A stretch of DNA of 35,308 bases from positions 1 through 35,308 of the forward strand of contig JAGLYT010000001.1 of assembly GCA_023132075.1 (NCBI GenBank). The letters are read 5' to 3'. The translations under genes were made by a program, and so were the position numbers. The notes under the pieces were generated by a model, which worked only from the letters and a program-made list of their open reading frames with translations, did not search any database and was not told where the DNA came from. The DNA comes from a bacterium. Lineage in GTDB: Bacteria > CBDUZB01 > JAGLHV01. Every line of letters starts with the position of its first letter. Positions within the stretch are counted from its first letter, which is position 1. Positions 8,401 to 35,308 of the stretch are shown here, piece after piece.

Positions 8401-11400
8401 TTTTGTTGATTCTTTAAGAGGGAATTTGTCTTTTGACCAAGATTGTAATACTACTTTCCATTCCAAACCTGCTTCAATGAAAATTGAATATAAACCGGAA
8501 ATTCATAAAGATGTGCAGGAAGTAGAACCAAATCCGGAATCTATTGTATGGATCAATTATGATAGCTATAATTTAAACGGAGCGACAAAATTAACCTTTT
8601 GGGCAAAGGGGGAAAAAGGAGGAGAGCGTGCTTATTTTGGGATGGGGGATATAGACTCTGGTGATTCGTCTGAAATAAGTACAAATTTTATTAAACTTAC
8701 TAATGAGTGGCAAAAGCATACAATTGATTTAGAAGGCAAAGATTTAAGTAAAATTGAAATGGGTTTTTATCTTATAGTTTTTAACGATGAAAACCCTGAA
8801 GGTTGTGTGTTTTATTTGGATGATATCAAATACGAAAAAGACCCTGAAGTAGAAAAAGAAAAAAGCATTCCCGGATTGGGTGTTTTAGGTCCCCTTTTTG
8901 CATTGTTTTTTGGGAGATATATGCGTAATATTTTTAAGAGAAGACAAAAGATGCCAAAAATAAAAATTGCTCACTGGCGAGCGGCAGAATTAAATAAAGA
9001 TAATAAGCATTGTGGATATTTGAGTAAAACGATAGATAGTAAGAAATTTTTTTCTGAAAGTATGGAGCGAGAAGGAAAGGTTGTTAGGGGGATAAAGAAG
9101 GAAATTAATAAGTTACCAAAAGATAAGAAGACAGAGATTAATATTGATATGTCAGGTAAAAAAATTACATTAATCTTAACTAATGAGGATATTAAATTTT
9201 TGGAAGGAGAAAAAATAAATATTACTGCTTCTGAGGGGAATCTTCTGAGTCTTCTAAGCAAAGCATTAGCTCTGGAGAAAGAGGTTTATAAAAATACGGA
9301 TTATAATAAATTAAATGAAAAAATTATATTATCCTTGCTTGACCGGTCCCGCCATTTATCAGAAGATTGTTATAAGAACAGCTTTATAGGAATAAATAAA
9401 TCTATTCTTGAAATAAAAAATGAAAAAATAAGAAATATAGTTTTTATAATAGCTTTTATGCATGAGTTAAGGCATGAAGCAACCGGAAAAAATGATGATG
9501 TTTTTAAAGAAGAACAATTAGAAAAAGATGTTGTTCTTACCCTTAATCTGTTAAAAGAAGAAAATATTTTATTAAATGATTTTATTGGAGCGTTGGAACC
9601 GTTGATAAAAAAATCAGAGTATTTAAGCTTTTTAAATGACCTTCTTCCCGAATTTAAAAAATATAAAAGAGAACGAATTATAAAAAACACAGATACTTTT
9701 AATAAGGAAAAAATTATCAAAATAATAAAAGGGATAGAAAATACTATAAATGAAAATCCTTATGTTAGTTTTACCGTTGGTGGTAAAGAATTAACAGTGA
9801 AATTAAAAAAAGATAAGTGGAGAATACTGGAGAGATTTATTGAACGTTTTGTTTTCCCATCAATGGATGATGTAAACGATTTCCCGGAATTATTACAGAT
9901 TAAGAGTGATGAATTGCGGCCGGATGTATATATGCCTGATGATGGATCTTTTGGAACAATATTTTTAAAAGTAATGATAGTATCTAAAGTCCCTGTATTG
10001 ATGTTCGTAGAAATTCAATCAACCCCGAAATTTAGAATAATGAAACCTGTAAGTAAAAGGAAGGAATACAGTGTGTGGAAGATAAAAGTGATTGAAAAAT
10101 TTATCAAAGCTGCAGAGGAGCAAGGTGTCAAGACTTTTTATGCTTCAACGACTAAAGTAGTAAAAGATTATTATAAAGGTAAAGGATGGATTAGTAACGA
10201 TAATCTAAAGAATGATTATAACCGCGTATTTAATAAAGATAAAAATTGGAATAAAAAAGAAGTTTATGTCTTTGATCATTTTGATGATGAGATAATGAAA
10301 AGAATGGAAGTATGGTCTTATCAGGACATGAAAGAAGAAAAAATTGTTCCTGGCCACAAAGAGATTAGTATTTTTTCAGCAATGACTATAGGCAGTATAA
10401 TAGCATCATTTACCGGTTTTATCCCTGTTGTCAGTGCGGCACCGGAGGTGGCTACGGCTGGTTTTGGGATATCGTTGTTAGGAATGAATTTATCGGGGAT
10501 ATTTGCTGTTTTTATGTTAACATTGATGCCTTTTATGTCTTTTATTTCAATAAGAGCGCGGCAGGCAGTAGAATTAGATAAAGATGTTTTTGAAAGAGAT
10601 AAAAGAAAAATAAGGGGAAAAGTATTAGAGGAGATGCCAAATATAAAAACATTATATTCGCGATTCAATACTCTTGCTGAACCGGAAAAAGAACTTTTAA
10701 GAAAAGAATTCTATAAAATTGGTAGTGGACACTTTACTTTGTGGAGATTAACTAAACAAACAAATAAAAATTTAAGTCCTTATTTTCATGGCAGTTATAA
10801 AGATGCTTTAATAGTTAGTTTTCCGAATCTTGATTTAGAAAGATTAGGATTTGGCTATGAATGGGATACTAAAGAAAAAGGAATAGCGAGTGTCCAATAT
10901 GCCATAAGAAAAGAAAGGCCGGATTTATGGGATAAATGCCAGCGATTTGATAATCTTCTTGAAGCAGAAAAAGAAATTTTAAGACAGAAATTCTATAGAA
11001 TTACTACTGCACATTTTATTGTGTGGAAAATAAACAGCGCAAAGAACCAAAGTATTACTCCTTATTTTACTGGGAGATATTTAGATGCTTTGATAATCAG
11101 CTTCCCGAAACTCGGGTTAACGGTGGCTGAAAAAGAAGAATATATGAAAAAATATCCAAAGGAGAAGAAATTTACTTGGAAAGATAAAGGAGAAGGTATA
11201 TTTAATATTCGGCGTACTATTCAAAAACAAAGGCCGGATTTATGGAGAGGATATCAGCAATTTAATATTCTTACTGAACGAGAAAAAGAACTTTTAAGAT
11301 GGATGTTCTATAAAATTAGTAGCGGACATTTTGCCATATGGGGATTAAGAACAGCAATTAATAAGAAAACAAATACTTATTTTCATAGGAGTTATAAAAA

Positions 11401-14400
11401 TGCTTTAATAATCAGCTTCCCGGAACTTGAATTAGAAAGATTAGGATTTTTTGGCTATGATTGGACTACTAAAGAAAAAGGAATAGAGAGTATCCAGTAT
11501 GCCATAAGAAAAGAAAGACCTGATTTATGGAAGGTATACGAGAAATTAGGTAGTCTTACTGAACCAGAAAAAGAACTTTTGAAAAATAAATTTTATGAAA
11601 TCACCTATGCACATTTTGATCTATGGGAAATACACGGAGCAAAAGAAATAGAAATAGCACCTTATTTTAATGGCAGTTATAAAGATGCTTTAATAATTAG
11701 TTTTCCGAATCTTGATTTAGAAAGATACGGCTTTGGCTATGATTGGACTACTAAAGAAAAAGGAATAGAGAGTGTCCAATATGCCATAAGAAAAGAAAGA
11801 CCTGATTTGTGGGAGCAATACGAGAGGTTACATAGTCTTAGAGAACCAAAAAAAGAACTTTTAAGAAAAGAATTCTATGAAATTAGTCCCGGACAGCTTA
11901 AGATATGGCAAGTAGGGGGAGCAATGAATAAAAGAGTAGCTCGTTATTTTAATGGTAATTATATGGATGCTTTAATAATCAGCTTTCGGAAACTTGGGTT
12001 AGAAAGGGAAGGGTTTAACCGTAAGCTTATTTCAGGAGTACTAACTAAAAGAGAAAATGAATTATTTGAAGCAAGGAGAGAAGAAATAATCAATGACCCA
12101 ATGGGTCCTTTTGGCATTTTTGGGGATGAGGAAGCACGGCAATTTACTCATGATTTAATAGCCTTTTATTATAAAAAAAGAGGAATAGATGAAAGAATAA
12201 TTGATGATATAATGGATGAAATAGATGAAAATATTTCTGATTCCGAATCTGTTGTTGCAGGAATTTATGAAAACATAAATCTGGATGAAATTGTAAAAGA
12301 ATATAATAGTGACGATTATAGATTGAAAGAAGATCCGGAATTAAAAATAGAGATAGTAGGTAAAGATGTAGATGTAGAAAGGCCTATAGTAGTAGATGTT
12401 GGCTGTGGAAAAAATAATTTGTTGCCTGTTATTGTGAAGAAAAATCCAGGTATAGAAAAAGCTATTGGTACGGATGAAATAGATTATCATATAGAATCAG
12501 AAGATAATAGAGTAGAGTTTAGAAAACAACCTACACCATCTAAAATTCCTGTTGAAAATGGTGAGGCAGATAGAGTGATAATGTCTCTTGTATTACATCA
12601 TGCTACAGATGAAGTAATTAGAAATTTATTGAGAGAGTCTTCAAGAATTTTAAACCCTGATGGGAAATTAATAATCTTGGAAAATACATTTGCCGGAGGA
12701 GCTATTAAACCAAAATATAATAATGAGCTAAGTAAGCGTTTTTCAGAATTAAATGAAGAGCAAAAAGATAAGGTTTTCCGGTTTATAGAGTGGTATAGTG
12801 CAAGGTTGATAAGTAATATAAAAGAAATGCAGTTTGCTTATAATTGGAAGAGTATGGAAGAATGGAAAGAAATATTTGAGGAGGCAGGATTTACAATAGA
12901 AAAAGAAAATTTTCTTGGTATAGTTGATTTACCCTTTACTCCTAAATTGCCGTTGGGAGTTTTTGTCTTGAGGAAAGATGATTTTATCACTCAGAAGGAA
13001 AAAGTTAAGGAAAAAATAAAGGAGACTATAAAGTTTTTAAGTTTAATTAAAAAGGGGAATTGGGAAATAGATAAAGATATTTTAGATATAGATATTAAAC
13101 GGTTAAAAGAACAAAACAAGCAATTAAATAAGGGGCTGGTAAACTTAAAAGGTTTGTCAGAAATAAACGGTAAATTGAATGAAATAAAAGAAGAGACGGA
13201 AGAAAGAATTAAGGACAAAGCGATGCATAACTTAAGTATCTTAACAGAAATAAAAGAGTATAATGATATTATTAAATTGCTTTGTGATAAAGAGAAGGTA
13301 ATGACAAGGTTGGAGTTGGCAATATTAATTAAAATAATAAAGAATGAGAAAGAAATTTTTAGGCAAATGATTGATAAGGAAAAAGACCATGGAAAAATTA
13401 TTGCTATTCATATAGAAAGCATAGAATGGATGAGAAAGAAGGGTTTAACAAATAGAGAAATAGGTAAAATTATAATCTCTTGGCCAGCTGTTTTTTCATA
13501 TGGGAAAGAGAGATTTAACAGGGGAGAAATTAATTTTAAAAATGTAGGCATATTGGAAGAGGGAATTATCGATATTTTAAAGTCCTTTCCTTCATATTTT
13601 GCCTTGGATTCAGTTGTTCAGAAACAGAAAATAGAATGTATTAACTATGTAGAAACAAAAATAGGGGAAAAAATAAATCTGGTAGAATTTATAAACAAAT
13701 ATCCTCTATGGTTTAGTTATAGTGTAGAAAATAAAATTAAACCGACTTTAGATTTATTTATGAAAATACGTGATAAAAATAATGAGTGGACAGATATTTT
13801 TATGAGATTGTTAGCTTGTAATTTGGCAGTAACTAAATTAATTGTAAAAATAATGGGAGAAGAAAATACAAAAAAAATAGATGCAAAAAGAGTTTTAAAT
13901 GTTTACACTAAGTTAGATGTAAAAATTAAAAGCGATAAAAAAATCAAATTTAAGAAGTTAGATTTAGATAAGAATAAAGATACAGGAGAACATTTAAGGA
14001 CGGAAATAATTCAGATATTAAAAGATGAAGAAGACAAATATAAATCAAAAATGGTTAAAGAGCTTGAGGTTGTTTTTGAGGGGCTTATTAATGGTGATGT
14101 CCAAATTAATTGTGATGGTAAGGAAAAATTTAATACAGAATGGGGATGGGTTGATCTTGGGGAATTAAATAATTTTGAGGATTATATATCAGATAAAGGC
14201 AGACAGGCAGTTTTTTATCTGGTAAGGGATCTATATTTTGCAAAAGAGAAGGGATATATAGAGCTGAAGGGAGTACAAACTATTAGTATGCAAAACGTTT
14301 ATAAAGCATTACCCGATGGAATCAAAAAAAAGACTAATGCTAAATCTCAGGCACTATCATGTGCTAAATTTTTTGAAGCAAAACGTTTAATCGAACCTTA

Positions 14401-17400
14401 TCAAGGTAAATATAATGAAGAATACAAATATAATGAAGGACAAATTAAATTAGCCAGAGAATTAGGAGTAAATACTATTTCGTCTTTATATAGAGCTTTT
14501 GGTGATAAAGAATTTATTGAATGGAGTGGTTGGACTTATCCCTCCTATAATTTAAGAGAGTTGGATAAAGCTGATATTTTAGAAGAAAAAAAGTATAGTT
14601 TGTTGAAGGTTACTGATAAAGAAATATTAAATGTTTTTGTAGAAAAGTTGGACCAGGGTAAAACTTTTCTTACATCAGGAGAAGTGAGAGAAAAGTTTAA
14701 ATTAAAAGGGAAAGCTTCAAGGTTTCTTTCTTCCTTATTATCGGCAGGATATATTGAGAGAATCGGCAAAAGTCAAAAAACTGTGTATAAATTAGTTAAT
14801 CCTTATAAAATAAGGAGTTTGGTTTTAGAATTTAAAAAGCCGGTAGAAAAAGTAAGAGAGTCATGGAAAAATCTTTCTGCGGAAGAGAAAGGGCAGTTAG
14901 TGCTTATAAAGGAATTAACAGATTCTTTAAATTCGTCGGATGTGAATAATAAACAGATCGCTGAAAAATTAGGTATAAATCCGGATAACACAGCAAAGGG
15001 AGTGAAGAAGTTTACAGAATTGCAATTAATGATACATAGGAAAAGAGCTGATTATTCGTTATCAGAAGATACAAGATATTCAATATTAAAATATGAAGAA
15101 GAGATAATAAAAAATTATAATAATCTTTCCCAAAACAATAAGGATAAATTTAATTTACTTATGGATAAAATAAGGAAAGTTGAGACAGAAGGAAGGAAAG
15201 CCAGGGCAGAAGATTTTGAGAATATATTAGGCAGGGATAGATTTAGAAAAAAATTGAACCGATTAGGTTTTGTTAAACAAGGATTAATCTTAAAACCTAC
15301 GAGTAATACCTACACAATATCTCGTTGTTTGATTGATCATATTATTGCCCAAAGAGATGAAATTGTTGGGAAAGATGGATTAGTAAAAGGAAAAACAGGC
15401 AGAATAGGGCTGTTACCAAGAGTGACGATAATTTTAGGGTTATTTTCAGGATTTATTAGTACAGCTTCTGCCCAGCCGGATGTAGTAACTAATATAACTG
15501 CTGCAGGATTATCGCTTTTGGAAATGAATTTGCCTGGGGTGGTTGTGGTAGGGTTAGTAGGTGTGTTATTGTTGGGTTGGTTAGTAAAAGCTATAGGTAC
15601 AAGAGCCGGGCCGGTAGTTGATAAATTAATTAATAATTTTATCCGGAATAATCCGCTGACAGCATTTCTTGTCTTAGCAGTAATTCCTCGTAAAAAGGCC
15701 AGCCCGAAAGATTTCCAGAGTCAGCAAAAAACTATGAAAGAAATAGTGCTAGAAAAATTAAAAGATTTTTGGAATGAAGGCAGTATCCAGTGGAATCAAG
15801 ATGAAATTGAATGTAAAAAAATACCGTTTTTGGAAAATAACGAATTTTTAGTTTTATATAATCCGGTTAGAGATACAAGTGCTCGTTTATTGCATAAGTC
15901 TGGATGTAAAATGTGCAGGTTGTCTTCAGAAAGGTTAATTTTAGATTTGCAGAAAGAATGGAAAAAAGCAGCAAAAATATTTAATAATAAACGACCCTAT
16001 CTTTCCTATAAGCAGATTCTATATGTCCCTAATGACCACAGTACAAAGTTACCTCCGGAGTATATTGAATATGTAATTGGTCTGACTTCTCTTTTGGGGT
16101 TCAAAGGACATACAAATCTTAAGGGTGCTGGGGCAAGTTCTCCGGAACATTTACATTCTCATCTTTATGATATAGATAAAGAGTTAATTGATGATAAAAA
16201 CTTACCTATAGAAAAAATGGAAAAGAGGGAGTTATTTTCCGATCGGGAGGGGGAGGTTCAGATATATGATTTGGTAAATTATCCGGCAGCTTGTTTCGTA
16301 ATAAAAAGTAAAAGTATATATAAGTTAGCTCAAAATGCCCATTATATTATTGAGCGAATCCGAGAAGCAGATATATCGCTGAATTTTTATTTTACCCTGG
16401 ACAAAATATATATTTTTCCGCGGAAAGAAGAAAAATATTCAGGGAAATTAATTGGTGCGTTAGAACTTGGTGGTGTTTTTATATGTGATTCGAAGGGAAT
16501 GTATGAGCAAATGGATAGTGAAAGTAAAATTATAGAGGTAATTGAAAATACTGTTAAATCAAAAGAGGAAATGGGCTTTTTGTATGAATTAATTAGTGCA
16601 AAAAATAAACAGGAGGAAAAAGGAACCATTGTTGGGGAAATAAAGCACAAGAAACATAAGTTATCCCCGGAGAAAAAGAAAAAATTTGTTTTCAATCACG
16701 AATGTTGGAAAATAACTCCTGCAGGGGCGTTGGAAGTATCCGATGTTTTACCTACAAGCCGTGTTGAGAAAGAAGGGATAAAGGTAGGGGCCGGAAAGAT
16801 ATATGATCCTGCTAAATCTTGTTTGATTATGGGTTCTCTTGATGAAAGAGAATCTATCCGGATAAAGAAATTTGATGACTTTATGGAATTAATAATTGTA
16901 GGCAGAAAAGAAGATGGAAATGTTATTACTGTTCTTGCTCACATTGCTTCCGAACGCGTTGGATTAACAATCCTATTTAATATTTATAAAGAAATACAAA
17001 AGAAAAAATTATCCGATTTAAAGATAATGGTAGTAGGAGCAAAAGAAAACATTGATATGGTTAATTTGTCTGCGGAATTTTTACTACAGGATTTTGAAGC
17101 CTTATTCGAGTTAATAATAAAGAGAAGAAGACATTTGGGAATTGAAATCGGAAAAAATCGTATTAAAGTCTCAGACGGTGATTATGAATCCAGGGTTATT
17201 GACCCGATAATTTCCTATGAAGAGGTTAAAGATTCATTTAGTATTGCAGATAGAACCCAAAGATTGGAACGGGCAGCGAAAGCATATAAAAAAGGAAAAG
17301 GTTTAGAATTATTTCAGGTATATGCTCAGTTGCTTAGAGCATATGCGCAGAGCAGGGATTTAACTAATTTATCCGATATTAAAATTGAAGAATTAAGTAA

Positions 17401-20400
17401 AGGAGATATTTTTAATAATGCCTGTTTAAAAATAGATTGTGCTGTGGATGTAAATAGAAAAATAATAGAAAAATTCGGGATGAGAATATCTAATGACGAT
17501 TATTTATTTGAGGAAGAAAACAATATAAAGTGGGAAACTGGGGAAGGGTTGAGGGAATTACTGCCTGCTCAAACAAAGATAGTAAATATTGAACAATTTA
17601 TAGAATCTTCAGAATTGATATTTGAAGGTAAGGTTCCTTTGAGTAATATAAGAATGATGATTGAACGATTACTTAGAGAGGATGTAGATATAATAATAAG
17701 AAGGTTGCTTGATGGAAACGAAGAGCTGATTTACGGTAAAGTAAAGGAAATAACTGAGCTTTACCCTGAAATTGGAAAGTATATAGGAAATGAAGATTTA
17801 ACCTTGTTGGAAATATATAAAAAATTGGCAAAAGATTCTGTAGATATTATAGATGAACAACAAAAGTGGGAGCAGGGTATAAAGACATATGCAGAAGAGA
17901 GAAATTTGAAGGCGGATAAAGTACATAAACAGTTAATTAAATCTTATGCGCAGAGTAAAGGATTAAACTTGTCTGACAGCAACATTGAAGAACTAAGCAA
18001 ACGAACTATAAAAAATGCTTTTACCAGGATTGATTCTACTGTAGATTTAAAAGATACAGTTATGGATAAATTTGGAATAGAAATGAATGATGAGCAATGT
18101 TTGAATATAGAAGAACGAAATACAAAATGGAAGGAAATGACAGATGAAGAATTAGTGCAGAAAGTAATATTGTTACATCCACAGGGAGAGATAAAGAATA
18201 CTGAACAATTCATAGAATATTCAGGATTGATATTTGAGGGGAAGGTTTCTAAAGAAGATGTGAGAGAGGTAATCAATAAGTTACTTAAGGAAGAGGAAGA
18301 GATAACTTATGAAAAAGTAAAGGATATAATTGCTTTTTCTCTGAAAGAGAAAGAGAAAGAGATAGAGAAGATAAAAAAAGATGAAGAACATAGACAGTTA
18401 ATTAAATCATATGTACAAAGTAAAGGATTAAACTTTTCTGACAGCAAAATTGAAGCACTAAGCAAACGAACTATTAAAAATGCCTTTGGCAGGATTGATT
18501 CTACTGCGGATTTAAAAGATACAGTTATGAATAAATTTGGAATAGAAATGAATGACGATAGATGTTTAAGTATAGAAGAACGAAATACAAAATGGAAGGA
18601 TATGACAGATGGAGAATTAGTGCAGAAAGTAACATTATTGCATCAACAGGGAAAGATAAAGAATACGGAACAATTTATAGAATCATCAGGATTGATATTT
18701 GAGGGGAAGGTTTCTAAAGAAGATGTGAGAGAAGTGATTAATAGATTAATCGCTGAGCAGGAAGACCTGACTTATGAGAAATTAAAGGATGTAATTGATC
18801 TTTATCCGGAAATTAGGGAATATATGGGAAATGAAGATTTAACCTTGTTTGAAATATATAATATATTAATTAAATCATATGCGGAAAAACAGGGTTTGGA
18901 ATTATCAATAGATACAATTGAGCCATTAAGGAGATATTATTCCGTTGATAATTTTTATAGAAAAATAGATTATGCGGTAGAATTAAAAAAGATAACAGAG
19001 GAAAGATTTGGGATAGAAGTAACGGACAATTATTGTTTATCTATAGCGGGAGATATAGGGGATAAAAAATGGCGGGAATTTAAAGAGAAAACAGATGAAC
19101 AATTAAATCAATGGCTGGCAGGTAATATGTTTCATTATCAAGCTGAAATAACTGAGATTGAGCAATTTGCCGGAGCTTTATCAAAAGTATCGGAAATTAT
19201 ATTCGGTGAGGAGATATCGGAAAATGAAATAAAGAAAATAATTAAAAAAGTGCAACAGAGTAAATTAAAACTGGTTTATGGAAATGTTAGTAAAGTAATT
19301 ATTCTTTATCCTAAAATCAAAAATTATGTAGAAAAGGAAGGCAAAGAGCAGAACTTGAAATTGTCAGATACTAAGATTATGGGTTTAATTCATAAATACA
19401 GTGAAAGGAATATTTATAAAATAATAAATGCTGCTATAGATTTAAAAAAGACAATAATGGAAAAATTCGGAATGGAAATATTAGATAGTTACTGTTTAGA
19501 ACGGGTAAGAGACAAAACGGATTGGAAAAAGCAGGAAAATACAAAATTAGACAAATGGCTGGTTAATGAAGTTTTACATAAACGGGCTAAGATAATAGAT
19601 ATTAAACAATTCATAGAAGCTTCGGAATTGTTACTTGAGGGGAAAGTTTCCCGGGAAGATATGAGGGAAATAATTAATAAGTTAGTTGCTGAGAGAGAAG
19701 GTTTAACTTATGGAAAGATAAATGAAGTAGTCAGTCTTTACCCGGAAATTGGAAAATATATAAAAAAGAAAGATTTAAGTTTATTTGAGATATATGAGAT
19801 ATTAATTAAATCATATGCGGAAAAGCGGGCTTTAATTTTAACCGATAAAAAAACAAAAGAATTAGGTAAGAGCTATATTGTCCCTAAAGCCTGTGAAAAA
19901 ATAGATTTTGCTGTAAAATTAAGAACAATAGCGGAACAAAGGTTTGGATTAGAAATGTTTGATAGTTACTGTTTGTTTACAGTAATGCACAATACGGAAT
20001 TGGAAAAATGGCCGGAAAAAATGACTGAGGATGAATTGGATAGGTGGTTTTTTCAAAAAGGAGTACATGCACAGGCTAAAATAGTGAATGTTGAACAGTT
20101 TGCCGGAGCTTTATCCGGAGTATCAGAAGTTATACTGGGTAAAAAAACATCGGAAGTTAAAATAAAAAAAGTAATTGAGCAATTGAGTAAAGAAGGGCAG
20201 GAGCTTACCTTTGGAGAAGTAAAGAAAATGTTAATGGAGAAAAAGCTAAAAACAGGAAATAGAATTTTAAAAACAGTATTATTGACGATAACAGGATTAG
20301 TGGTTTTATCCTGTGGTTTTATTCCCCTTGCAAGTGCGGCACCGGGTATAGTGACTACTGCAATCGAAGTATCAATGTCGGGAGTAGGTTTTTCGGGGAT

Positions 20401-23400
20401 AGAAATGGGAATATTAGGCATTATGCTCTGTGCAACGATGATAACTTCACCGGATAAAAGCCTCGATAAGAAAAAAATAACTTTTGATAAAAGCAAAAGA
20501 TTTTCTTTAAATCACCGATACTGGAAAATATCTTTTGCAGGAGACTTAATTTTCTCAGATTATTTACTTAATAATTATGCTATTGAAGGGGAGATAAATG
20601 TAGGTGATGGAAAAATATATTCTTCTAATAAATCTTGTTTAATAATTGGTTCTCTTGGTGAAAATGAGGTTGTTCGAATGACAGGATTTACAGATTATAT
20701 TGAATTAATTATTACCGGAAAAAAGGAAAATGGCAACACTATTACCCTTATTGCCAATATTACGCCGGAATACCTCAAGGAAAAACTATTAGTTAATATT
20801 TTCGAAAAAAGTAAGGAATTAAGGGGATTATTGGATTTAAAAGTAGCAATAGTGGGTAAAAAAGACAGTATTGAAAAAATTAAAAAGATTTGGGAAACAA
20901 ATAATTTTCCGGTTTCTGATAATAAGATTTTATTGACACATTCAACTACAAACGGAGAAGCTATACGTTCATCTCTTATGATTATTGTTGGCAAAGACGA
21001 TATTAGATTAATACACAAAAAGGGCAGACAGTTAGATTGGGATAGTCTTATAATAAAAGAAGTTCAGGATAGCGGGCAAGAATTAACGGGGATAATAACA
21101 ACAAAAAAAACACGAGCTGTAAACGAATTGGATGAAACCAAAAATAATTTGTCAAGCTTTTTGAAAAATAAATATAATCTTAATGAAAATCAAAAATTAA
21201 TCTTGGAATCAGCTATTAGTAATGGCTTTATTTGTTTTAATAACGACATGCTTAGATCTGACCAAAGAATACCATCTCTGGACAAGTATAAACTGCATAG
21301 AGCTATAAAAGGGCTTGAAAAATTAGGATGGCTTACAATTCCGACCAAAGGACGTTATATTTTAAGCAAAAAACTAATCGATGATTTGCGGGAATCTCAA
21401 CTACTCAATGATGAAGTGTACAAGGAATGGATGGATATTGTAAATATGGAAGAAATATTTAACGAATTTGTCTATCCTAAAAAAATTGGAGATTCCTATG
21501 GCTATCGGGAAGATAGGACATTAACCAGTGAAGATAGAGAATTTATGTTGGCAATGTTGCAACTAGCTAAAGGAGAAATTATTTTTGAACCGGACAAGTT
21601 AAAAAACAAATTTTCCTTTTTAAAAGACAAATATAGTAAAAAACATTTTCAGAATTTCTTTGCTGTTTTAGAAAAATGTAATTTATTGTATAGCCCGGTG
21701 AAAGGACGATATTTACTAAGTAACCGATTTATAGATGAACTAAAAGAAAAAGGGCTTATAGCAGATGTTTTTTATGAAGAATATGTAATGGTTTTAAAAA
21801 GAGAAAAATTATTTAATCGGTTTGTCTATCAAAATGATATAGGGTGGACAATTAAAGGGAATAGATTAATTAATCAGGATAGAAACTTTACAATAAAAAT
21901 GGTAAATATAATGTCTTTGTTAGAAGGACCTTTTGATATTGAAAAATTATTTAATTTATTTAAGGAAAATGAAGACATTAATAAAAAGCAGCTTGGTGTG
22001 TTATTAGGTAATTTAACAAATGCAAATATTTTAGACAGGCCGGTAGGGAACAGATATTTATTTAGCAAAGAATTTATTGATTTGTTATTTAAAGAAGGTT
22101 TTATTGATAAAGTTACCAAAGACAAATGGACTAATTTATCAAGACGGGAAAATATGTATAAGCTTCAAACCGATAAAGTAAAAGGTATCTTGACAGCGGC
22201 AACATTTAAAGTTCTTGATGTTATCGTTGACAATAAATTAGATGAATTCACAAAAAAAAGTATTTCCAAAGATTTTCTTCCTGATATGTCAATAAATACA
22301 GTGAAGAAATCTTTAAAAGCACTCAAGGAAATGGAATTTATTACATATGATGACAAAAGCACTTATCATGTTATTTGGGCAATAGAAAGCATTCAAAATG
22401 ATAAGCTTTTGGAAATTATTATAGAAATAGAAAATAAAGCTGATTTAGAAGAGGATTTTAAGGCAGCAAAAGACCTATATGAGAGAGCCATCAAGGAATA
22501 TTCTAAGATTAAGGAAGGAACATCTGATTATGAGTTAGTTAGGAAATCAATCAAACGCTGTTCGAAAAAGATTGAAGATAAAGGGGTTGCTATTATTAGA
22601 AAGGAATTGCCTGAAAATTTCACAGCTCTTATTTTATTCTTTATAATTCAGAGATTAAGCCGGAAGGATATTCTAAAAGATGAAAGGATTAATACAATTA
22701 TCTTGAGAAATATAACCAAAATGCTTATTAACGATGAGTGGGTAAAATATGAACAAAGTAAAAAGGTTGTGCCAACGAATAAAGCACTAAAGCTTCTTTA
22801 TGGTTCTGAGTTCATTACAATTGTTTTTGAAAAATCATCTTATACAGATTTAGAAATTGAAAAAGCAAAAAAAATACTTAATGGAGAAGGATATGAAATC
22901 AATGAAGAGACTATTAAACGGGTAATAATATTGTTTAGAGAAAATATAGAAATTAAACCGGGTTATATGAAAATTTTGGCAGAGACATTACAGGAAAGGA
23001 TAAAAGCAATAAATGCAGAAAGAGGGAAAGGAATAGATGTTCCTAATTACTTTATTTTGTATCCCGTAGAAGTTTTATTCTTGCTGGTAGATAGTTATAT
23101 AAAAAATAATAAAGCTGTTAGTTTTCATTGTATTTACAAAGCTTTGCCTTTAGCAAAATCACCAAAAAATTTATTAGGATTATTAGGTGATTTTGTAAAT
23201 TCATCTTCCACGGGTAAAAAAAATAAGATAGGTAATAGATTATTAAATGCATTTAGATTCTTTCCGGATAAAATGAAAGAGAATTTTGAAAAAATAGAAA
23301 CTAATGAGTCTATTAGTAAAAGAATTGTAGGAAAATTTATTGAAATTCTTTATAAATCTCCGAAATGTTTTGAAATACTTATAATCTTAGATAAGGTAAA

Positions 23401-26400
23401 ACCTGTTTTAAAAGAAGAAGTAATGGAACATCTTAACGAAAAATTTGAAATTATAAAAGAAGTATTTCTTGTAAATTCAGCAAAGGGGATATCTATAGAA
23501 GATGCTTTAGCCGGAATAGAAAACGATATGTTTGATGCATTTATTAGAAATGATAACGGTGAAATTATATTAGTTGCTGTTGATGAAGACGGGTTAAAAG
23601 GATCTGCAAGAGATGAAAAAGGTCAAGTAACACTGTTATCTTATGCAGGTATGTTGATGTTGGTATTAGGTATAGGGATTTTATTTGTATTATCCCCTTT
23701 ATGGATTATGGAAATTCTCCTAATCGGTATTATTATGGGAGGTATGGCTATTTATCATAGTCCACCGTGGAGTAAATCAGACACAAAATTCCCCTTCTCT
23801 ATTATTCAAAATCCCTTAATAGCCCTTTTTGTATTAGGACTGCTTCCCCGGAAAGAAATAAGTCCGCAAGTTTTAGACGAGGTTCCTGTTTATACTGACA
23901 TTCTGGAAATAGCGGATATTGAGTGGGATGGACTTATAGGGACCGATAGTCTGGGATATGTTGTACAGAGAGTATTACGCAGTTTAATAGGTGGTTCTCC
24001 GGCGATAAAATTTATTGCCGGCCAAAAGATAGAAGAATTAATGGGTAATGAAAAACAAAAGAATTTAGTGTTAGATATAGCCAAAAATTTGGATTTATCC
24101 GGTGATGAAGAACTTTCCAGCATTGTTGAAATTATAAGAAGGCCGGATAATTTGGTAAAGGAAATAGGAGAAGCAGCCAGAAAATATCTTATTGCTCGAG
24201 GAGATGTTAAAATTCCTGAGCATGATGAGGGTTTACTTTTAGCTGCTAATTATCACATTCAGAGGGAAATAAGCAGTATTGCTGAGGCAGAGAGCAGACA
24301 AATTTCTGTTAACTATGTAGAAAGCGAGGGCAAAAGAAAAAAATTGCCTATAAAATCATTTATTGAAATAATCGGTAAACTTATTATTTCAAGTATAGGA
24401 GTGATTGTTTTAATAAACTTATTTTCCCAATTTATAAAAGGTTGGTTGTATATAATAGTAGTTGTGGGAATAGGCATAATTGGAGGGAAATTTGCAGTAA
24501 AATGGGCTTTTAGTCGTCCGTTAATGAAATGGAGGCAAACAGTTAATGCGTTAAAACCGAAAGATTTAGAATTTATTCTTGGGGATAAGAATGTTAAGTT
24601 TTATCTTAAAATAGAGTCTTTTGGTAAGGATTTAATTGATAAAGGAGAAGAATTAGAAGAAAGGTTAAAAAAATTAGGGGTTGATGTCGAAATCTTAAAG
24701 TATGACGATAAAAAACCTCTTTCTTTTTCCGGAAACTGTAATAAGATTATAATTATAGGATTGTTTCGAAGAAAAAAAACGATTTCTGATATGGATAAGT
24801 TTAAAAAAAATGATATAGCAGTTCGTTATTTTAAAGGCAAAATACCCGAAAAGATGCCTATGAATATAATTCAATGTTATTTAGACGAATTTGAAAAAAT
24901 AGTGCATAATCTGGTTGAATACAAGAAAGAAGTCGTTGAGATTGAAAATATATTATCGGGTGAATTTAATGAAGAAAAATTAATTATTTATACAGATAAA
25001 ATATTGAGGGAGATTTTCGTTTATATAAGAAACCCTGAAAAAGATATTATGCCTATTTCTGAAAGTGAAAAAAAAGTTAGGCAGATTTTTGTGAAAAATT
25101 GCAATTATAATAAAAAAGATGCCCGGAGATTAAGCGATGCATTGGTATCCAGTAAAACTTATTTGCAAATATTAAAGGGTAATAATAAAAAAATAACAGA
25201 TAAGATAACCGGTAATTTATTATATATTCTTGCGTATTCAAAGAGTACATTGGATAAGATAAGAGTTAAGAAAGATATTTTGTTTAATGTAGAGAGATTA
25301 TTTTTTAGCGCAATTGATATAGAAATGTTAAAGAGAGAGGGATATGATAATAAAGAAATAAGAAGTAATTATTTTTCGGGAGAAAATACAGGTAACTTTA
25401 TTTATTTACCTGAAAAGAAAGGTTCCGTTATTAATGTTAATGCTATTTTTTTCATTCGGAAAGATTGGAGAGATATAGTTAATTTGTCTGATGGATACAG
25501 GAAGGTGATACAAGAAATTTATAATGGGGAAAAATCATCGATTCCCATTAGCGAAGATTCATGGAGAGATTTATGGAGGGAAGTAAACCGCCTTAATTTG
25601 CTATTTGAAAAATATTTAAGATCAAAGAAAAATATTTCGAAAGAGAGTTTAGTTCTATCGAAAGAACTAAGAACACAATATTCAGATGATTTAATTGACA
25701 GGATTTGTGCTATGAGGATAGTGAGGAATGCTTTAGAGTCATTTCCTGGGGTTAAATTGAGCAGTAAATTTATGGAAAAATTTATTGAAGAAATAAGAGT
25801 TCCTTCTTTTCCTAAGGATGTTAAAGAACTGGAAGTTTTATTTTTATATTTCGCTAAGGAATATAAAGGGTGGGAAGAAAAAGGTTTGGAACCCTTTGAG
25901 ATAGAATCAATGCTGCTTAGAATTTCTGTAGATGAAGCAAAAATGTTAGAAAATTCCGGTATGAATATAGAAGATATAAAGCTTTTAGCAACTAGAGACA
26001 AAGCAGAAATTAGAAAGGAGATTGAAAGTAAAAATATAAGTACCCCTATAGAAAAAGATGAAAAATCGCGGATTAAAAGATTTATAATATTTGAAAAAAT
26101 CAATCTTACAATTGTTTCTCTTATTGCCTTTCTTATAGGTGCTTTCATTTATATTAATAAAACACATGGCACCGTATTTGCAGTAGGTTTTATGACTTTA
26201 TTGGTGCTGTTGCATTATAATCATTTTTTAATAAATAAATATTCTTTGAAAAAAAGAATGAAACAAGAGATAAGCACAAAATATATAAAATCACTAATTG
26301 AAGATGAAAGTAAAGAAATTTATCTTATACCGGAGTTTACCGGTCAGAAAGAATTAAAAATGGACAAGATAATAAAAAGACTAAATAAAATGGGAATAAA

Positions 26401-29400
26401 AAATGTGGAATTTTTTGAATTTTCCAGCACTAATAAAATTACTGTTTTAAATGATGAAGGTATTATAATAATAAGGTTATCTCCTGTTCCACTGGAAGCG
26501 GGAAAATCTTACTTAACTGATTGGAAGGATCTTTTCCGTTATTTTGATGAAAAATTAAAGACAAAAGCTGAAAAAATAAAGGTTGAAGAAATTACAATTA
26601 ACATTGAATTTTTCGAGGAGGTAATCGATGAATTAGAAAAAGAATATAAAAAAACGGATGATCGTGGCGGAATAGAGCCATTAAAGACGTTGATTATTTT
26701 TCCCTTGTTAGTTTTTGTGGCAGGCATATTTGCATCATTTAGTGGATTTATAACTGAATCAAGTGCAGCATCGGATGTAGCAATTGCTGCTCTTGGAGTA
26801 CCGTTAGGGTTGGGGATTATTTTTAACTGGTTAATTTTGTCCGTAAGTAAAATGGGGGATGAAAATCAAAGATTAATTTTGAAATCGGCTATTAGTAATG
26901 AGTTTGTGGAAATTGTTGTAGAAATGGAAAATAAAGCTGATTTGGAACCTGATTTTAACAAGGCAAAGCGGCGTTATAAGGAAGTCATAAAAAAATATTC
27001 TCGGATTGAAGGAGGTGTGGCACAGGAGGCTATTAGACGCTGTTCGGGAAAAATAGAGGAGAGGGGAGTTAAACTTGTTAGAAAAGAAGTACCGGATTTG
27101 TTTGATAGTATAGTCTTATTTTATTTGCTGCAGGGATTTACTCGTGAGGAAATAATAAAGTCAAAAGGGTTTGGTGTTCCGCATTTGCAAAAAATAACTA
27201 CAAGTCTTTCAAACGCAGGATGGATAGAAAAGGGTAAGGGTAACAGTTTTATTACTACAGGGAAGGCAGATAACCTTATTGGTAAATCATCGACAGATTC
27301 TCTATTACAGTTATCCAATCAGGAAAGTGTAGAAATGCTTATTAGTTTAAAATTGCCGGTCAATAATGAGAACATTGAAAAAGTGAAAGTATTGAAGGAA
27401 AATAAATTTCCGATAAATTCAAAAACTATCATAAATAATTCGGTAGACACACTAAAAATAAAAATCAAAACGATTGAGGACTATAACTTAACGAATAAGC
27501 AGAATAGTAATAGAAGGGGAGGATTCCGATCGATTATAACTTATTCATTAAAAAAAATAGAATTAATATTAGAAACTGTTAAAAGAGCTGATCATTTAGG
27601 GATAAAGATTTATCTGAATGATATTGAAAAACTTGTATTGGTCAAAGGAGAAAACGGTTTTCTTGGTGATTTAAATAATTTTGTTAAGTCAAAAAGAACA
27701 ACAATTAGGGGAAAGAAAAGATTAACGGATTCAAAAATGAAAGTTGAAAGGGAAATAGTTGGTAGGAAATTATTAAAAGCAGCATTAATATGGCCGGAAA
27801 GATTTTGTGAAATTTTTGAAGAACTGGAGAAAAATAAACATACTGAAGAAAAAACGATAGAATTTATTAATATTCTTTATGACTTCCCGGAATTTTTTGA
27901 AATACTTTTAATTTTAGAAAAGGTTAGACCTGTTTCAAAAGAAGAAGCAATAATAAAATTTAAAGAAAAACCGGAAACGGTAAAAGAAGTATTTCTTGTA
28001 AATTCAGAAGAAGGGATACCTATAGACGATGCTTTATCAGGATTAGAAAACGATTTATTTGATGTGTTTATAAGAAATGATAATGGTGAGATTATATTAT
28101 TAGAAAAGAAGGAAGGAAAAAGTGAACCAATAAATCCGCAGGTCTTGGGTGGGGTTCCTGCTTATTCCAATGTTTCTGAGATAAAGAGTATTGACTGGGA
28201 TAGGGTTAATCAATTAGGTGAGTTGGAGATAAAAAAGGTATTACAAAAATTATTCCGTAGTTTAGTATCCGATAAATTTACAATAAAATTTATTTCTTGT
28301 CTAAAAATAGAAGAATTGATGAGGAATGAAGACCGAATAAATTTGGCCTTAAAGGTTGCAAATGATTTGGATTTAATCAAGCGTGAAGGGTTTCCTGGTA
28401 TATTTGAAATTATAAGTAATTCAGATAATTTGGAAAAAGAAAAACAAAACGCAATTAAAAAATATTTAAATGAGCTTTTGCAAAATAAAGCAGGTTACGA
28501 CAAGGATGAATTAAAAACTATAGAGATTGATCCTGAATTATTTAAGCTTATTTATGATTATAATTTCGGGAAGGAATTTAAAGTGCAATTTGCTGCCCCT
28601 GAAGAAATAAAAAATGCAGGAGGCAAGACATGGTTTATAAACAACGAAAATAGAACAATATTATTAAATACTAACTATGTAATAGAAAGCAAATCTGCTT
28701 TTTATGGTTATTTAAGAAAACTTCTTCTTCCGTGGGTTTTAGCACATATTAATGGGCACTTAATTAAGCTGCCTTCCTCTCTCGGCTTCCTTAGTAAACC
28801 TATCAATTATCTTTATGCGCCTCTTAAAATCTTCCAGAATCTGATTTATAATAAAAATATAAAAGATGACTTATTTTGGTTAGTACGGTTAGTACGGTTT
28901 TATATTTTTATATTTGCCTTTTTTTATCTCGGAATTTGCATAGCTGAATTGAGTCATTCCATAGCATTTTCCTCGTTATGGAGAGATGGTTATGCATCGT
29001 TATCTCTCTCACTATTTAACCCCGTTCTTTATGTGCATGAATTTGGGAGGCCTGTTTTCTTTTCATATCGTTTATCAAAAGCTTTGGTATTTGTTTCCGG
29101 AGCTATAGGAATGATAATATATAGTTTAATGTTGTTAAAAAGTGCCTCTTGGATGGAAAAATACAAGAAAGAGTGGTTTTTAAAGAGAAGTTTCTCATAT
29201 CTATTTTTTATGATTAGTGGTTATTTATTTTTATATGCAACGGTAGATATTTTCGGAATGCAAAGTTTTTTTGGTTATGACACACATGGAGATTGGAGTC
29301 TGCTTGTTAATCTTGGACTTTCTCCAATTATTCCGTTATTTGTATTATTGATATTAGTGTTTTATTCAGCAAGTTTTTTGGCGAAAGAAATCAAATATTT

Positions 29401-32400
29401 TGTTGAATATATTATACTAAAAAGCTCAATTAGTGTTATTCTGGTAATATTTAAAAAACCAAGAGAAATTTATAAAAAAATTATTAATTGGTATAGATTA
29501 AAAGTTGTCCCAATTAAAGTAGAAATAGGTTTTGGTAAAAAAGGAGAATTTTTATTAAAAAATGCGGTAAAAAATAAAAGAGTAAGATGGGTTGGAATTG
29601 AAGCAAATGTTGAAATAGCAGAACAAATGAGAGAAGAAATTAATGAAATAAAAAACATTGAAATTTTAGATACAGGGATTTTATCCGCGGAACTAGATGC
29701 AATGTATGATGGAAGTATTAAGACGGATAATCTTAAATTAAATACTATTTCTACGATTAAAAATAATTTTAAGCCAAATACAGTAAGTGGATTTTATATT
29801 AACTATCCTTTTCCACTCAAAGTAGTGAGATTTATAAATGGCGATTTAGCAAAACAATTGTATCATTCTCTGGCTTTGAGTGGGGAAGTGGTAATAGTCA
29901 CTGAAGATATATCTTATGCCGAAGTTATAGTTGAGATTTTTTCAGGAATTCCCGGGTTTAAAAATTATTTTATAGATTTACCCGATGGTTATGCTAAAGG
30001 AGATCCAAAACAATTTAGCGATAGTAAGGGATGGGAATATAAATTATATCCGGAAAAAGATTACTCGAAATCTAATGAAAAAGAAGAAGTATTTTGCCTG
30101 AGGTTTATTAAGCAGGATATACCCGTTTTTAACAAGACAAAATTAATGCTTCAATTTAATAACGAAAAGGACATTTTTGAGAGAATTAAAAAAACCAATA
30201 AAAATACTCTTTGGGTTATTTCGGGTTTTAATGGTAGAGCAGTAAAAGACATTCGCAGAAAGATTAAAAATAAAGGATTAAAAAATGTAATTGTTTACAC
30301 AGGTGTTCCATGGACGATATTAGATGAGGCAAAAGAAAATAATATTTCTGAAATATTTTTGGATAATACTACTTCCATACTTGAAGATGAATATAAAATG
30401 AAAGAGGAAACTTATTTAACAAAACCTGGTCTTGCTCAGAAAATTTCTGACCTACTGGTTTCGGGTGGGAAATTAGTTATTCACGCTTCAAATAAAGAAT
30501 ATATGGACCAAATTAGAGAAATCTTTTCAAAAATTAAAGATTTAAAGGAAGAAATAGTTATAGAAAAAGAAGGTAAATATTTTCTTCATTATACAAAAGT
30601 CAAGAAAGAGTCAAAAAAAGTAAAAATTCCCAAATTTATTTCCGAGCTTGCAGCATTATTTGTGTTGTTAGGTATCGTAGTTTCTCCGGAGAAAAAACAA
30701 GCTGAAAAAATTAAGCTGGATAGATGTTTAGAGAATGCTTCATCCGATGAGTTAAAAATGTTGGAGTTGATTGCCAGAAGAGCAGGAGGGGGTGGGCTTT
30801 ATCGAAGCGCTTTATCTGGTAAGTTTGGTTTAAACCGAACAATAGATTTATTAGATAAGCTTAAAAGGTTTAATGTGATAACCGGCCCGCATGGATCAAA
30901 AATGCATTATAAATTTAATCCTGAGATTAAAAAATATTTTGCAGATAAGGCAAATCAGGTAGTTTTTCAGCATAGAGTTGATAAGTTAATAAGGCAGACA
31001 AGTATAGTTGACCCGGAGAGTGTATTTAGAGCGGTGATGGAGGAAGTTGAAAATGTCGAAGAAATTTATTATGCGTTAAGTTTTATTCATAGAAATTATA
31101 AACTTAAAAAGGGAGAAGGATTTGGAACAGTTCTTATAAATAGAGAAACAGGAAAAGAGCTTTCATCTGCCCAGATTCATTCTCTGATTTCACCGGAAAA
31201 AAAGAATTATCAGTTTAACAATTTAAAAGAAGATTCCCCACTAAGACAACTTTTAATGCATATTCTTAACAAAACAGGGATTTTAGGCGATTTAGGCGGT
31301 TTACCGGCGCGAATGTCGATAGTGCCTGAAAGGAGTGATGATACCCTTTCTGCAATCTCCTCGGATGGGGAACGAGGTGTAGATGAATGGGTAAAAAATA
31401 ATTTCAGAGTAGAGGGGTTAGATAAATTTGTACGGAATGTGTTTGATAAAATCGTTCTCAGGCGTGTAAGGGATGAAGAAGGAACAACAGTTTATTCCCA
31501 CAAATCATTGGATTTTGAAGTAGTAGTTTTAAAGGGCAATCCCCAAAAAGTAGAAGAGATAAAAGAAAATTATAATTTAGCAAAAACAAAAATTTCTGAT
31601 TTAATTCCTGCGTTTAAAGTAATTGAAAATCCGAAAATAATAATTGAAAAAGTAAATGGACAAGGATATGTAGAATACGATTATGCCGTTGTCCGGGAAA
31701 AAACTAAAACTTGCCAAAATGTAAAGGGGTTAAAATTTAAAGAACTTGTTGAATTGATTTTTAGTATGTGGGAAAAAAGAATATTTTTCCCGGGAAAAAT
31801 ATTTATTCAAAATTTCGGTATTAATAAAGAGGGAAACATTGTTTTAAAAGATTTAGGGATTGTAAAGCCGGATTCAATTTATGAAGATAATTTCATTCTT
31901 TATTTGCGCAATTTGGATGTAGTTAATAAATTTAATCCATTAGATGTTTTTAGTAGGGGTAAAAAACCAGTAAGAGTAAACATATTATTATGGGTAAAGA
32001 GTTATTTAAACTTGTTTATATATAATTCTCTTTTTGTAAAAATATGGCTTAGAATTAAAATAGAAAACGCAAAGGAATACTTAGGTAATTTTTTAAAAGA
32101 GCATTCAATTAAAGAAAATGAAAAAGGCCGTTTAAAGAATTTGGCATTTCTCCCTGTCATTTTTGGGGTACTTAGATGGCAAGGATTAAAAATATGGAGT
32201 AAATTTATGGCAAGGTGGAGATTTGTTTTCAGTAAGGATATTGATGAAAAGGCGGATATATTTTTGACTATGCTGTATGAACATAGAGATAGCCAAGATT
32301 TGTTAAGAAAGATGAAGATTAAAGAAAGAAAAGCTCTTGTTAGAGCGATAATTAAGTCAAATAACTCTAGAATAGAAGAATTTCTTAAAGAACTTATTAA

Positions 32401-35308: not shown

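Follow-up and report, generated by a model that had tools for sequence, protein, structure and literature searches.

Three diverged copies of a multi-domain cassette in a giant bacterial membrane-protein gene

A 35,308-nucleotide (nt) stretch of bacterial DNA (contig JAGLYT010000001.1 of GenBank assembly GCA_023132075.1, positions 1 to 35,308 of the forward strand), referred to here as the window, is in its entirety a piece of one giant bacterial membrane-protein gene. Three units within it, which we call X, Y and Z, are most probably ancient intragenic paralogues of one composite cassette, in a gene for a giant multi-pass membrane protein of the kind described from Omnitrophota. Comparison of the copies shows that the cassette was copied to three dispersed sites of the gene along with the conserved transmembrane (TM) hairpin module in front of it. 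The copies have since diverged under purifying selection to 39–53% amino acid (aa) identity, and whole modules have been lost, gained or amplified in frame.

Frame 2 of the forward strand contains no stop codon between nt 2 and 35308, a run of 11,769 codons, and the remaining two forward frames contain 1,240 and 1,512 stops. A program listing of open reading frames (ORFs) gave none on the forward strand because frame 2 runs off both ends of the window. The G+C content is ~30% and the coding strand has a strong purine skew. A crude hydropathy scan (Kyte-Doolittle mean ≥1.7 over 19 aa) detected 24 strongly hydrophobic 19-aa segments, grouped in ~12 clusters and spread along the 11,769-aa product. 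The sole regions of the window recognised by Pfam are methyltransferases, at aa 4108–4301 and aa 9837–9988.

2–35308, + strand: giant ORF in frame 2, open at both window ends and containing all units.

The repeats were recovered by chunked self-BLASTP of the frame-2 product. Unit X (aa 7028–7529) matched unit Z (aa 11268–11769) at 48–54% aa identity (E 1e-70 to 3e-86), X (aa 7461–8063) matched Y (aa 8960–9489) at 27–55% (E 6e-29 to 5e-36), and Y (aa 8971–9023) matched Z (aa 11712–11769) at 55% across a block containing ENKADLE (E 5e-14). Overall identity is 53% aa and 67–69% nt for X and Z, and 39–46% aa for X and Y. A MAFFT alignment showed the units to be strictly co-linear. An earlier reading of this DNA, made from its letters alone (hereafter the sequence-only reading), had proposed exactly such a set of three co-linear paralogues, and self-alignment recovers them. 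Its four motif blocks also lie where it had put them, with LIL..AISN at aa 7066, 8958 and 11309, ENKADLE at aa 7477, 8976 and 11717, FIRNDNGEI at aa 7847 and 9356, and (S/N)PQVL at aa 7953 and 9378. Of the unit limits, the start of Y at nt 26861 stands, but the similarity between X and Z begins ~34 codons earlier than had been drawn (nt 21083 and 33803). At the DNA level the units share 59–69% nt identity. X and Z align at 68.8% over 1,444 nt, X and Y are alignable in four patches only, the best at 82% over 239 nt, and megablast found no match between units. The units are dispersed and not in tandem, with ~875 and ~1,770 aa of unique sequence lying between them.

21083–24190, + strand: unit X (aa 7028–8063), the complete copy.
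21185–22177, + strand: three ~115-aa repeats of X (aa 7062–7175, 7177–7290 and 7292–7392), each a helix/beta-hairpin unit followed by long linker helices.
22199–22411, + strand: fourth winged helix-turn-helix (wHTH)-like module of X, ~70 aa (aa 7400–7470), distinct from repeats 1–3.
22412–22606, + strand: ENK module of X, 65 aa (aa 7471–7535), a TPR-like helical hairpin beginning ENKADLEEDF, helical in the model.
22607–23341, + strand: mid region of X, ~250 aa (aa 7536–7780), a wHTH and then a helical region.
23342–23599, + strand: FLVNS...FIRNDNGEIIL module of X (the FLVNS module), ~85 aa (aa 7781–7866), small alpha/beta, the best-conserved block of the unit.
23621–23848, + strand: hydrophobic cluster of X (aa 7874–7949), three hydrophobic stretches, without equivalent in Y.
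23858–24226, + strand: tail module of X, ~120 aa, helical (aa 7953–8075), SPQVL...IKFI...KIEELM.
26861–28468, + strand: unit Y (aa 8954–9489), without the 393-codon array and without the TM cluster; N-terminal remnant aa 8954–8969, ENK 8970–9029, mid 9030–9290, FLVNS 9291–9372, tail from 9376.
33803–35308, + strand: unit Z (aa 11268–11769), cut by the window end; three ~115-aa repeats aa 11305–11643, fourth module 11644–11713, ENK 11711–11769.

Module limits were taken from hidden Markov models (HMMs) built on the copies themselves. The full cassette begins with a linker helix, three ~115-aa repeats, a small wHTH-like module, a TPR-like hairpin and a wHTH with its helical region, and continues in its C-terminal part with a small alpha/beta module, an optional TM hairpin and a helical tail. 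The three repeats of X recur with an internal offset of 118 aa at 33–38% identity (BLASTP), and score E 6e-36 to 5e-46 against an HMM made from these same copies. From their modelled secondary structure they may be winged-helix-like, and repeats 1–3 have no wHTH match in Pfam. The fourth module gave sub-threshold Pfam matches that all belong to winged-helix families (TFIIE_alpha, E 0.009; SarA/Rot, 0.015; RepL, 0.07), with the best scores below their cut-offs (SarA/Rot 18.4 bits against 27, TFIIE_alpha 16.3 bits against 22.9), and the helix-turn-helix (HTH) of the cassette core likewise has winged-helix matches below threshold only. No relation among the array repeats, the fourth module, the core HTH and the FLVNS block was detected by hhalign. 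The sequence-only reading had described an array of four wHTH domains in X and Z. The array is present in both, but its parts are not four alike, as it consists of three homologous ~115-aa repeats and one unrelated ~70-aa module; "four wHTH" is thus a reasonable but unproven label, and support for a winged-helix fold is sub-threshold only.

The array is missing from Y, as had been noticed from the letters, and the point of loss can be delimited to a few nucleotides. Y reads AISNEFVE and then IVVEMENKADLE at this junction, which is flanked by blastn high-scoring pairs at 21183–21224/26859–26900 (90%) and 22401–22515/26898–27013 (74%). Comparison codon by codon leaves a stretch of X without counterpart in Y at ~nt 21230–22408, that is 1,179 nt or 393 codons, a little under the 395 first estimated. 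A second junction at ~nt 28100–28130 marks where Y lacks the hydrophobic cluster of X, again in line with the earlier observation, and the two places agree with the ~26905 and ~28125 proposed for closer delimiting. Microhomology was considered at the first junction: GCTTT recurs in X, though not in register, and Y does not derive from X.

26903–26908, + strand: Y junction; its left side aligns with X up to nt 21229 and its right side with X from nt 22409.

Relatives of the cassette are rare. A unit profile searched against 1.84 billion representative proteins (E ≤ 1e-3) returned 10 matches only, of which the named ones are fragments of Omnitrophota giant proteins. All 10 are partial and fill short contigs, as expected of fragments of giant genes. 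P0001 (1,126 aa) has a core identical to that of the genomic relative described below and, like P0008, is named only "bacterium". P0002 (6,678 aa, Omnitrophota) carries the array, P0003 and P0005–7 contain tandem repeats of the 115-aa type, and P0009 (Omnitrophota) combines a methyltransferase with a mid-like region. P0004 (Omnitrophota) has the tail alone of the unit modules, then the following segment and a hairpin. P0005 and P0006 stand under Altiarchaeota/Altiarchaeales names of metagenome-assembled genomes (MAGs), on contigs of 1.7–2.4 kb, and may be mis-binned giant-gene fragments or a real archaeal presence. Metagenome contigs scanned with the unit alignment and with Z gave no match, nor did a scan of viral contigs or tblastn against phage and plasmid collections. 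A protein search with aa 9833–10724 (29498–32173) was also empty, though P0001 overlaps the C-terminal 170 aa of this query at ~80%; this result was treated as a failure of word seeding on K/E/I-rich sequence, not as absence.

Among genome contigs a single relative was found, here L001 (DAOVVV010000020.1), a 49-kb contig from a cold-seep MAG. One open frame covers all 21.4 kb of L001 that were examined, it is syntenic with the window from aa 7953 onward at 59–85% aa identity, and Pfam recognises GNAT, HAD and methyltransferase domains in it. Units occur at the same three positions as in the window: the first is represented by its tail at the start of L001, LY occupies the position of Y, and LZ the third position.

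X, Y, Z and the two units of the related genome share one order of the same five to six modules, which supports the proposal that segmental duplication was followed by gain or loss of complete domains in frame. Copies differ in which complete modules they carry: array, tail and TM cluster or hairpin vary, and ENK occurs either once or four times. The TM cluster/hairpin is present in X and LY, and absent from Y and LZ. LY has a different HTH-rich array of ~550 aa at the place where Y lacks its own. It also carries four ENK copies and, behind the core, a TM hairpin, and is without the tail. Each unit of the window has a single ENK, and L001 contains a 195-nt in-frame tandem at 4845–5524 (3.5 copies, 90% identity). 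This amplification in LY is recent, judging from the identity of its copies, and it is the single recent event seen to affect the units. ENK is cut to 19 of its 65 positions in LZ and P0001, and LZ is without the tail. The Z-equivalent unit of the relative (L001, P0001) goes on with mid and FLVNS modules beyond the point where the window ends. Two insertions between units are specific to the window when compared with L001 and P0001. The first is a multi-TM insertion of ~210 aa (aa ~9606–9816, ~nt 28817–29449) containing HEFGR, which is reminiscent of a degenerate HExxH motif; the second is a helical insertion of ~480 aa (aa ~10715–11195, ~nt 32144–33586), weakly HEAT-like (HEAT_2, E 0.08).

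Divergence at synonymous (dS) and nonsynonymous (dN) sites places the triplication far back. The paralogous comparisons X–Z and X–Y gave dS of 0.78–0.97 and dN of 0.34–0.55, whereas orthologous segments of the window and L001 gave dS of 0.23–0.46 and dN of 0.07–0.24; dN/dS between units, a comparison that the sequence-only reading had called for, was 0.35–0.70. For a genome this A+T-rich, the paralogue dS is near saturation. As the three units occupy the same positions in L001, the triplication predates the split of the two genomes. Being ancient (dS ~0.8–1.0 against 0.23–0.46 for orthologues), it has little bearing on how the gene grows at present.

Several observations weigh against whole-unit copying within a gene of the Omnitrophota kind as the full explanation. 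Modules occur alone in other giant-protein fragments (P0002 has the array, P0004 the tail and P0009 a mid-like region), and part of the similarity between units could come from independent acquisition of modules. In addition, the record of the nearest relative, L001, is titled "Clostridia bacterium" and not Omnitrophota. As a separate observation, the named remote homologues are all Omnitrophota, unlike this label.

Taken further, the units would be a mosaic, each built independently from mobile modules (array, ENK, mid, FLVNS, tail) that recombine among giant genes, which we regard as improbable though the best of the alternatives. The occurrence of modules in other contexts in P0002, P0004 and P0009 would fit, as would the different core types and N-terminal arrays of the positional orthologues Y and LY, and the tail of P0004, which is nearer to the Y tail than to the X tail though its synteny (tail, S1 segment, hairpin) is that of the X position. 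However, the five to six modules always keep the same order and their similarity is continuous across module boundaries, for which copying of one composite unit is the simplest explanation. Furthermore, no recombination tracts were found at the nucleotide level, and the block with a low proportion of synonymous differences (pS) is low in all pairs, which is conservation.

A recent and ongoing expansion of tandem type, as in repeat adhesins, with more copies beyond the window, is considerably less probable. In its favour, the unit starts follow one another at similar distances, 5,676 and 7,053 nt (figures from the sequence-only reading that are arithmetically correct), the relative has its recent in-frame 195-nt tandem of 3.5 copies, and recent repeats exist elsewhere in the window (nt 17915–18341 vs 18380–18806, 87% identical). 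Yet the units themselves are dispersed, with 875 and 1,770 aa of unique sequence between them, their synonymous sites are near saturation, and Tandem Repeats Finder (TRF) detected no tandem repeat in nt 20000–35308. Both genomes have three copies, and the conclusion that had been drawn from the spacing, that further units lie outside the window, was not supported: module HMMs found none in aa 1–7000 and none in the ~3,000 aa after LZ. The spacing tracks the conserved TM-hairpin module that precedes each unit.

That the units are mis-assembled or duplicated copies of one locus can practically be dismissed: assemblies of giant repetitive genes are known to be fragmented or faulty (10.1101/2023.11.21.568195) and the window cannot be compared with reads, but the units have 59–69% nt identity, no megablast match, hundreds of substitutions and whole-module differences, the frame is open throughout, and an independent related assembly has the same unit order.

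If the units are ancient paralogues of one cassette, their later history seems to include exchange of the cassette core. Cores form two types, X with LY (57% aa, dS 0.56) and Y with LZ (54% aa, dS 0.49), whereas the X and Y cores share 39% aa and the Y and LY cores 38%. Y and LY nevertheless share a position between the same conserved flanks. Because core type and position disagree, we infer that at one position either the whole cassette core was replaced between the genomes, or an ancestral pair was differentially lost. These comparisons cover the cores of X, Y, LY and LZ, those of Z and the relative's first unit lying beyond the available sequence. Gene conversion between X and Y, considered for the 82% patch of 239 nt (pS 0.17–0.23), was rejected, since pS is equally low in all six pairs, between genomes too; low pS in the FLVNS block is to be expected if its conserved residues share preferred A/T-ending codons.

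A homologous TM-hairpin module precedes X, Y and Z, as alignment and an HMM show, in agreement with the earlier observation that each unit lies downstream of a TM cluster. Five copies were located in the window by alignment, HMM and charge counts, starting at aa 3445, 5136, 6746, 8889 and 11215, and the last three are those in front of the units. BLASTP found the hairpin before X to be similar to the one at aa 3461–3535.

10334–10573, + strand: TM hairpin.
15407–15613, + strand: TM hairpin.
20237–20470, + strand: TM hairpin before X (aa 6746–6823), two helices joined by FIPLASAAP and then a loop without lysine or arginine (K/R), with a K/R-rich flank on either side.
26666–26863, + strand: TM hairpin directly before Y (aa 8889–8954).
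33644–33844, + strand: TM hairpin before Z (aa 11215–11281), with a degenerate motif.
L001, aa 930–1012, 2182–2253, 3292–3345 and 5027–5105: four TM hairpins of the relative.

In the hairpin motif, K/R precede the first helix and F(I/L)xx(A/S)(S/A)A, then (A/E/Q)P, comes after it. This first half of the module resembles a Sec signal peptide and its AXA site for signal peptidase. An AXA-type motif is present in 7 of 10 hairpins, for example KKLKTGNRILK-TVLLTITGLVVLSCGFIPL-ASA followed by AP. The hairpins split the ORF into segments of ~1,600–2,300 aa, and X, Y and Z each stand at the head of a segment. It is a speculative and rather unlikely idea that the hairpins are processing sites, or else punctuation for shuffling, in the giant ORF. 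If the loops were cleaved, the "gene" would encode a polyprotein and would in effect be a fused operon for three membrane-anchored paralogous proteins, with the units as their N-terminal parts. If they were not, the hairpins would be topologically neutral punctuation between which cassettes could be duplicated, deleted or swapped with no change of topology, a bacterial analogue of exon shuffling.

A second candidate punctuation mark was observed in the distant Omnitrophota relatives, where DGG is over-represented between modules at ~15–20 times chance (26 occurrences vs 1.4 expected in P0002, 4 vs 0.3 in P0004 and 5 vs 0.3 in P0009). The tripeptide could serve there as a linker or as a processing signal of double-glycine type. 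Neither the window (2.2 expected) nor L001 (1.2 expected) contains a DGG.

The charge distribution around the hairpins bears on where the cassettes lie. The well-defined hairpins at aa 6758–6817, 8127–8162, 8700–8745 and 8896–8949 have loops free of K/R and 4–6 K/R in either outer flank, which by the positive-inside rule places the long segments between them in the cytoplasm, a placement that fits the S-adenosylmethionine- and acetyl-CoA-dependent enzyme domains found between hairpins. Gain or loss of a hairpin (X and LY vs Y and LZ) leaves the topology intact, since the chain re-emerges on the side from which it entered. By the same argument we infer an even number of crossings for the hydrophobic cluster of X, and not the three helices suggested earlier.

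The cassettes contain no recognisable catalytic domain. Our best guess, held with low confidence, is that they are a cytoplasm-facing, membrane-tethered and non-enzymatic binding scaffold. They would bind nucleic acid or protein at the inner face of the membrane through their winged-helix-like and TPR-like modules, and hairpins that keep the topology unchanged would tether the chain to the membrane at intervals. Unit Y as modelled by AlphaFold2 (mean predicted local distance difference test, pLDDT, 71.7) has helices for ENK and an H-H-H-beta-beta arrangement at residues 80–132, the rest being a helical region, a small alpha/beta domain and a helical tail. When this model was compared with the PDB by Foldseek, the high-probability short local matches were all winged-helix regulators (GntR, MarR, MntR, RPS19), those to GntR, MarR and MntR having probabilities up to 0.96 and E ≥ 0.47. 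Sequence-profile searches of the PDB were empty. Four tandem ENK copies of L001 taken alone matched Pfam Imm6 at 38.9 bits (cut-off 25) over profile positions 12–55 of 121 only, and the same copies in a longer context scored 21.3 bits; several TPR/Sel1 families matched them below threshold, and single ENK copies of the window were undetected by Pfam.

Other results speak against assigning such a function. No Foldseek match in the PDB reached E < 0.09, the AlphaFold2 model of the array is unreliable (pLDDT 53.9) with no meaningful Foldseek match, and no cassette module in the window reaches its curated Pfam cut-off. The topology is derived from weak methods, the positive-inside rule and the crude hydropathy scan, and if the X cluster crosses the membrane with all three of its stretches, the tail would lie on the opposite side.

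The window resembles the giant, TM-rich "Archaeovorin"-type proteins described from Omnitrophota (West-Roberts et al. 2023, 10.1101/2023.11.21.568195) in its enormous ORF with many scattered TM segments, in being mostly dark to Pfam with occasional methyltransferase, HAD, peptidase, TPR or HEAT-like domains, and in that the only named remote homologues of its unit modules are fragments of such proteins. That study set its criterion for giants at >30,000 aa and reported a SecA DEAD-like helicase in "most" full-length giants. Pfam found no SecA_DEAD, glycosyltransferase, C39 or NUDIX domain in the window (11.8 kaa) or in L001 (7.1 kaa), both of which are gene fragments, and the nearest relative is labelled Clostridia. 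The same study favours extracellular, cell-wall-degrading roles, whereas the cassettes here look cytoplasmic from their flanking charges.

A further likeness is to long proteins with TM segments only, anchored in the inner membrane with cytoplasmic domains, whose Pfam "Module 1" comprises methyltransferase, HATPase, GNAT and HAD (Nielsen & Lui 2026, 10.64898/2026.06.07.730766). That survey took proteins of ≥10,000 aa and found internal repeats to be "the rule", arising from ancient duplication and divergence with the nucleotide repeats dissolved. The present fragment, open at both ends, encodes at least 11,769 aa and shares the same enzyme repertoire (methyltransferases in the window, GNAT, HAD and methyltransferase in L001), the TM helices threading a mostly cytoplasmic polypeptide, and the old, diverged repeats. 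The repeat-type domains of giants are represented by the TPR-like ENK module, and by HEAT_2 at E 0.08 only. The survey concerned repeated Pfam domains, whereas the repeat here is a Pfam-dark cassette of ~1,000 aa with several domains, dispersed and with a homologous TM hairpin before each copy; whole-module insertions and deletions, and the swapping of core types between two related genomes, go beyond it. The triplication is genuine, yet no more than giant genes of this kind would be expected to show.

Two other classes of long bacterial genes offer partial parallels. Polyketide synthase and nonribosomal peptide synthetase megasynthases are long ORFs that evolve by duplication of multi-domain modules, loss and gain of domains and recombination of paralogues, all in frame. 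This is an analogy only; there is no relation in sequence or function, catalytic assembly-line domains are absent, and membrane hairpins stand between the modules here. Tandem-repeat surface proteins (adhesins, RTX/Bap-like giants) are likewise giant, bacterial and internally repetitive. Their repeats, however, are in tandem, ~100 aa long, immunoglobulin-like and often near-identical in DNA, whereas those described here are ~500–1,000 aa, dispersed and 59–69% identical in nucleotides, and TRF found no head-to-tail copies of high identity in nt 20000–35308.

How bacterial giant genes of tens of kb arise and change is explicitly an open question (West-Roberts et al.). At this locus the thing copied is not a single domain but a multi-domain cassette with its membrane hairpin; the copying is old and the copies have been kept under selection. 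Later change came by insertion and deletion of whole modules, local tandem amplification and, apparently, replacement of a core between close genomes. The locus reveals no new kind of system; it is a worked example, and it supplies module boundaries for structure prediction of otherwise dark sequence.

Other repeats occur in the window. Module P, which the sequence-only reading had placed between X and its hairpin, was located there by BLASTP. Its two copies share 45% identity over 138 aa (E 1e-31), and only copy 2 adjoins a unit.

20468–20881, + strand: Module P copy 2 (aa 6823–6960), between the hairpin and X, with its paralogue at aa 5551–5687 (16652–17062).

Upstream of these, nt 10583–12025 (aa 3528–4008) contain approximately five tandem repeats of 95–100 aa (38–59% aa and 68–78% nt identity), and nt 17210–20221 (aa 5737–6740) approximately six of ~155 aa. 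The repeat pair at nt 17915–18341 and 18380–18806, 87% identical in nucleotides and 82% in amino acids, is the most recent duplication in the window. At the beginning of the window, nt 2–2467 (aa 1–822) hold an internal repeat family with up to 55% identity over 220 aa, and a weak Pfam match to PQQ_2 (BamB-like beta-propeller) was detected at aa 290–388.

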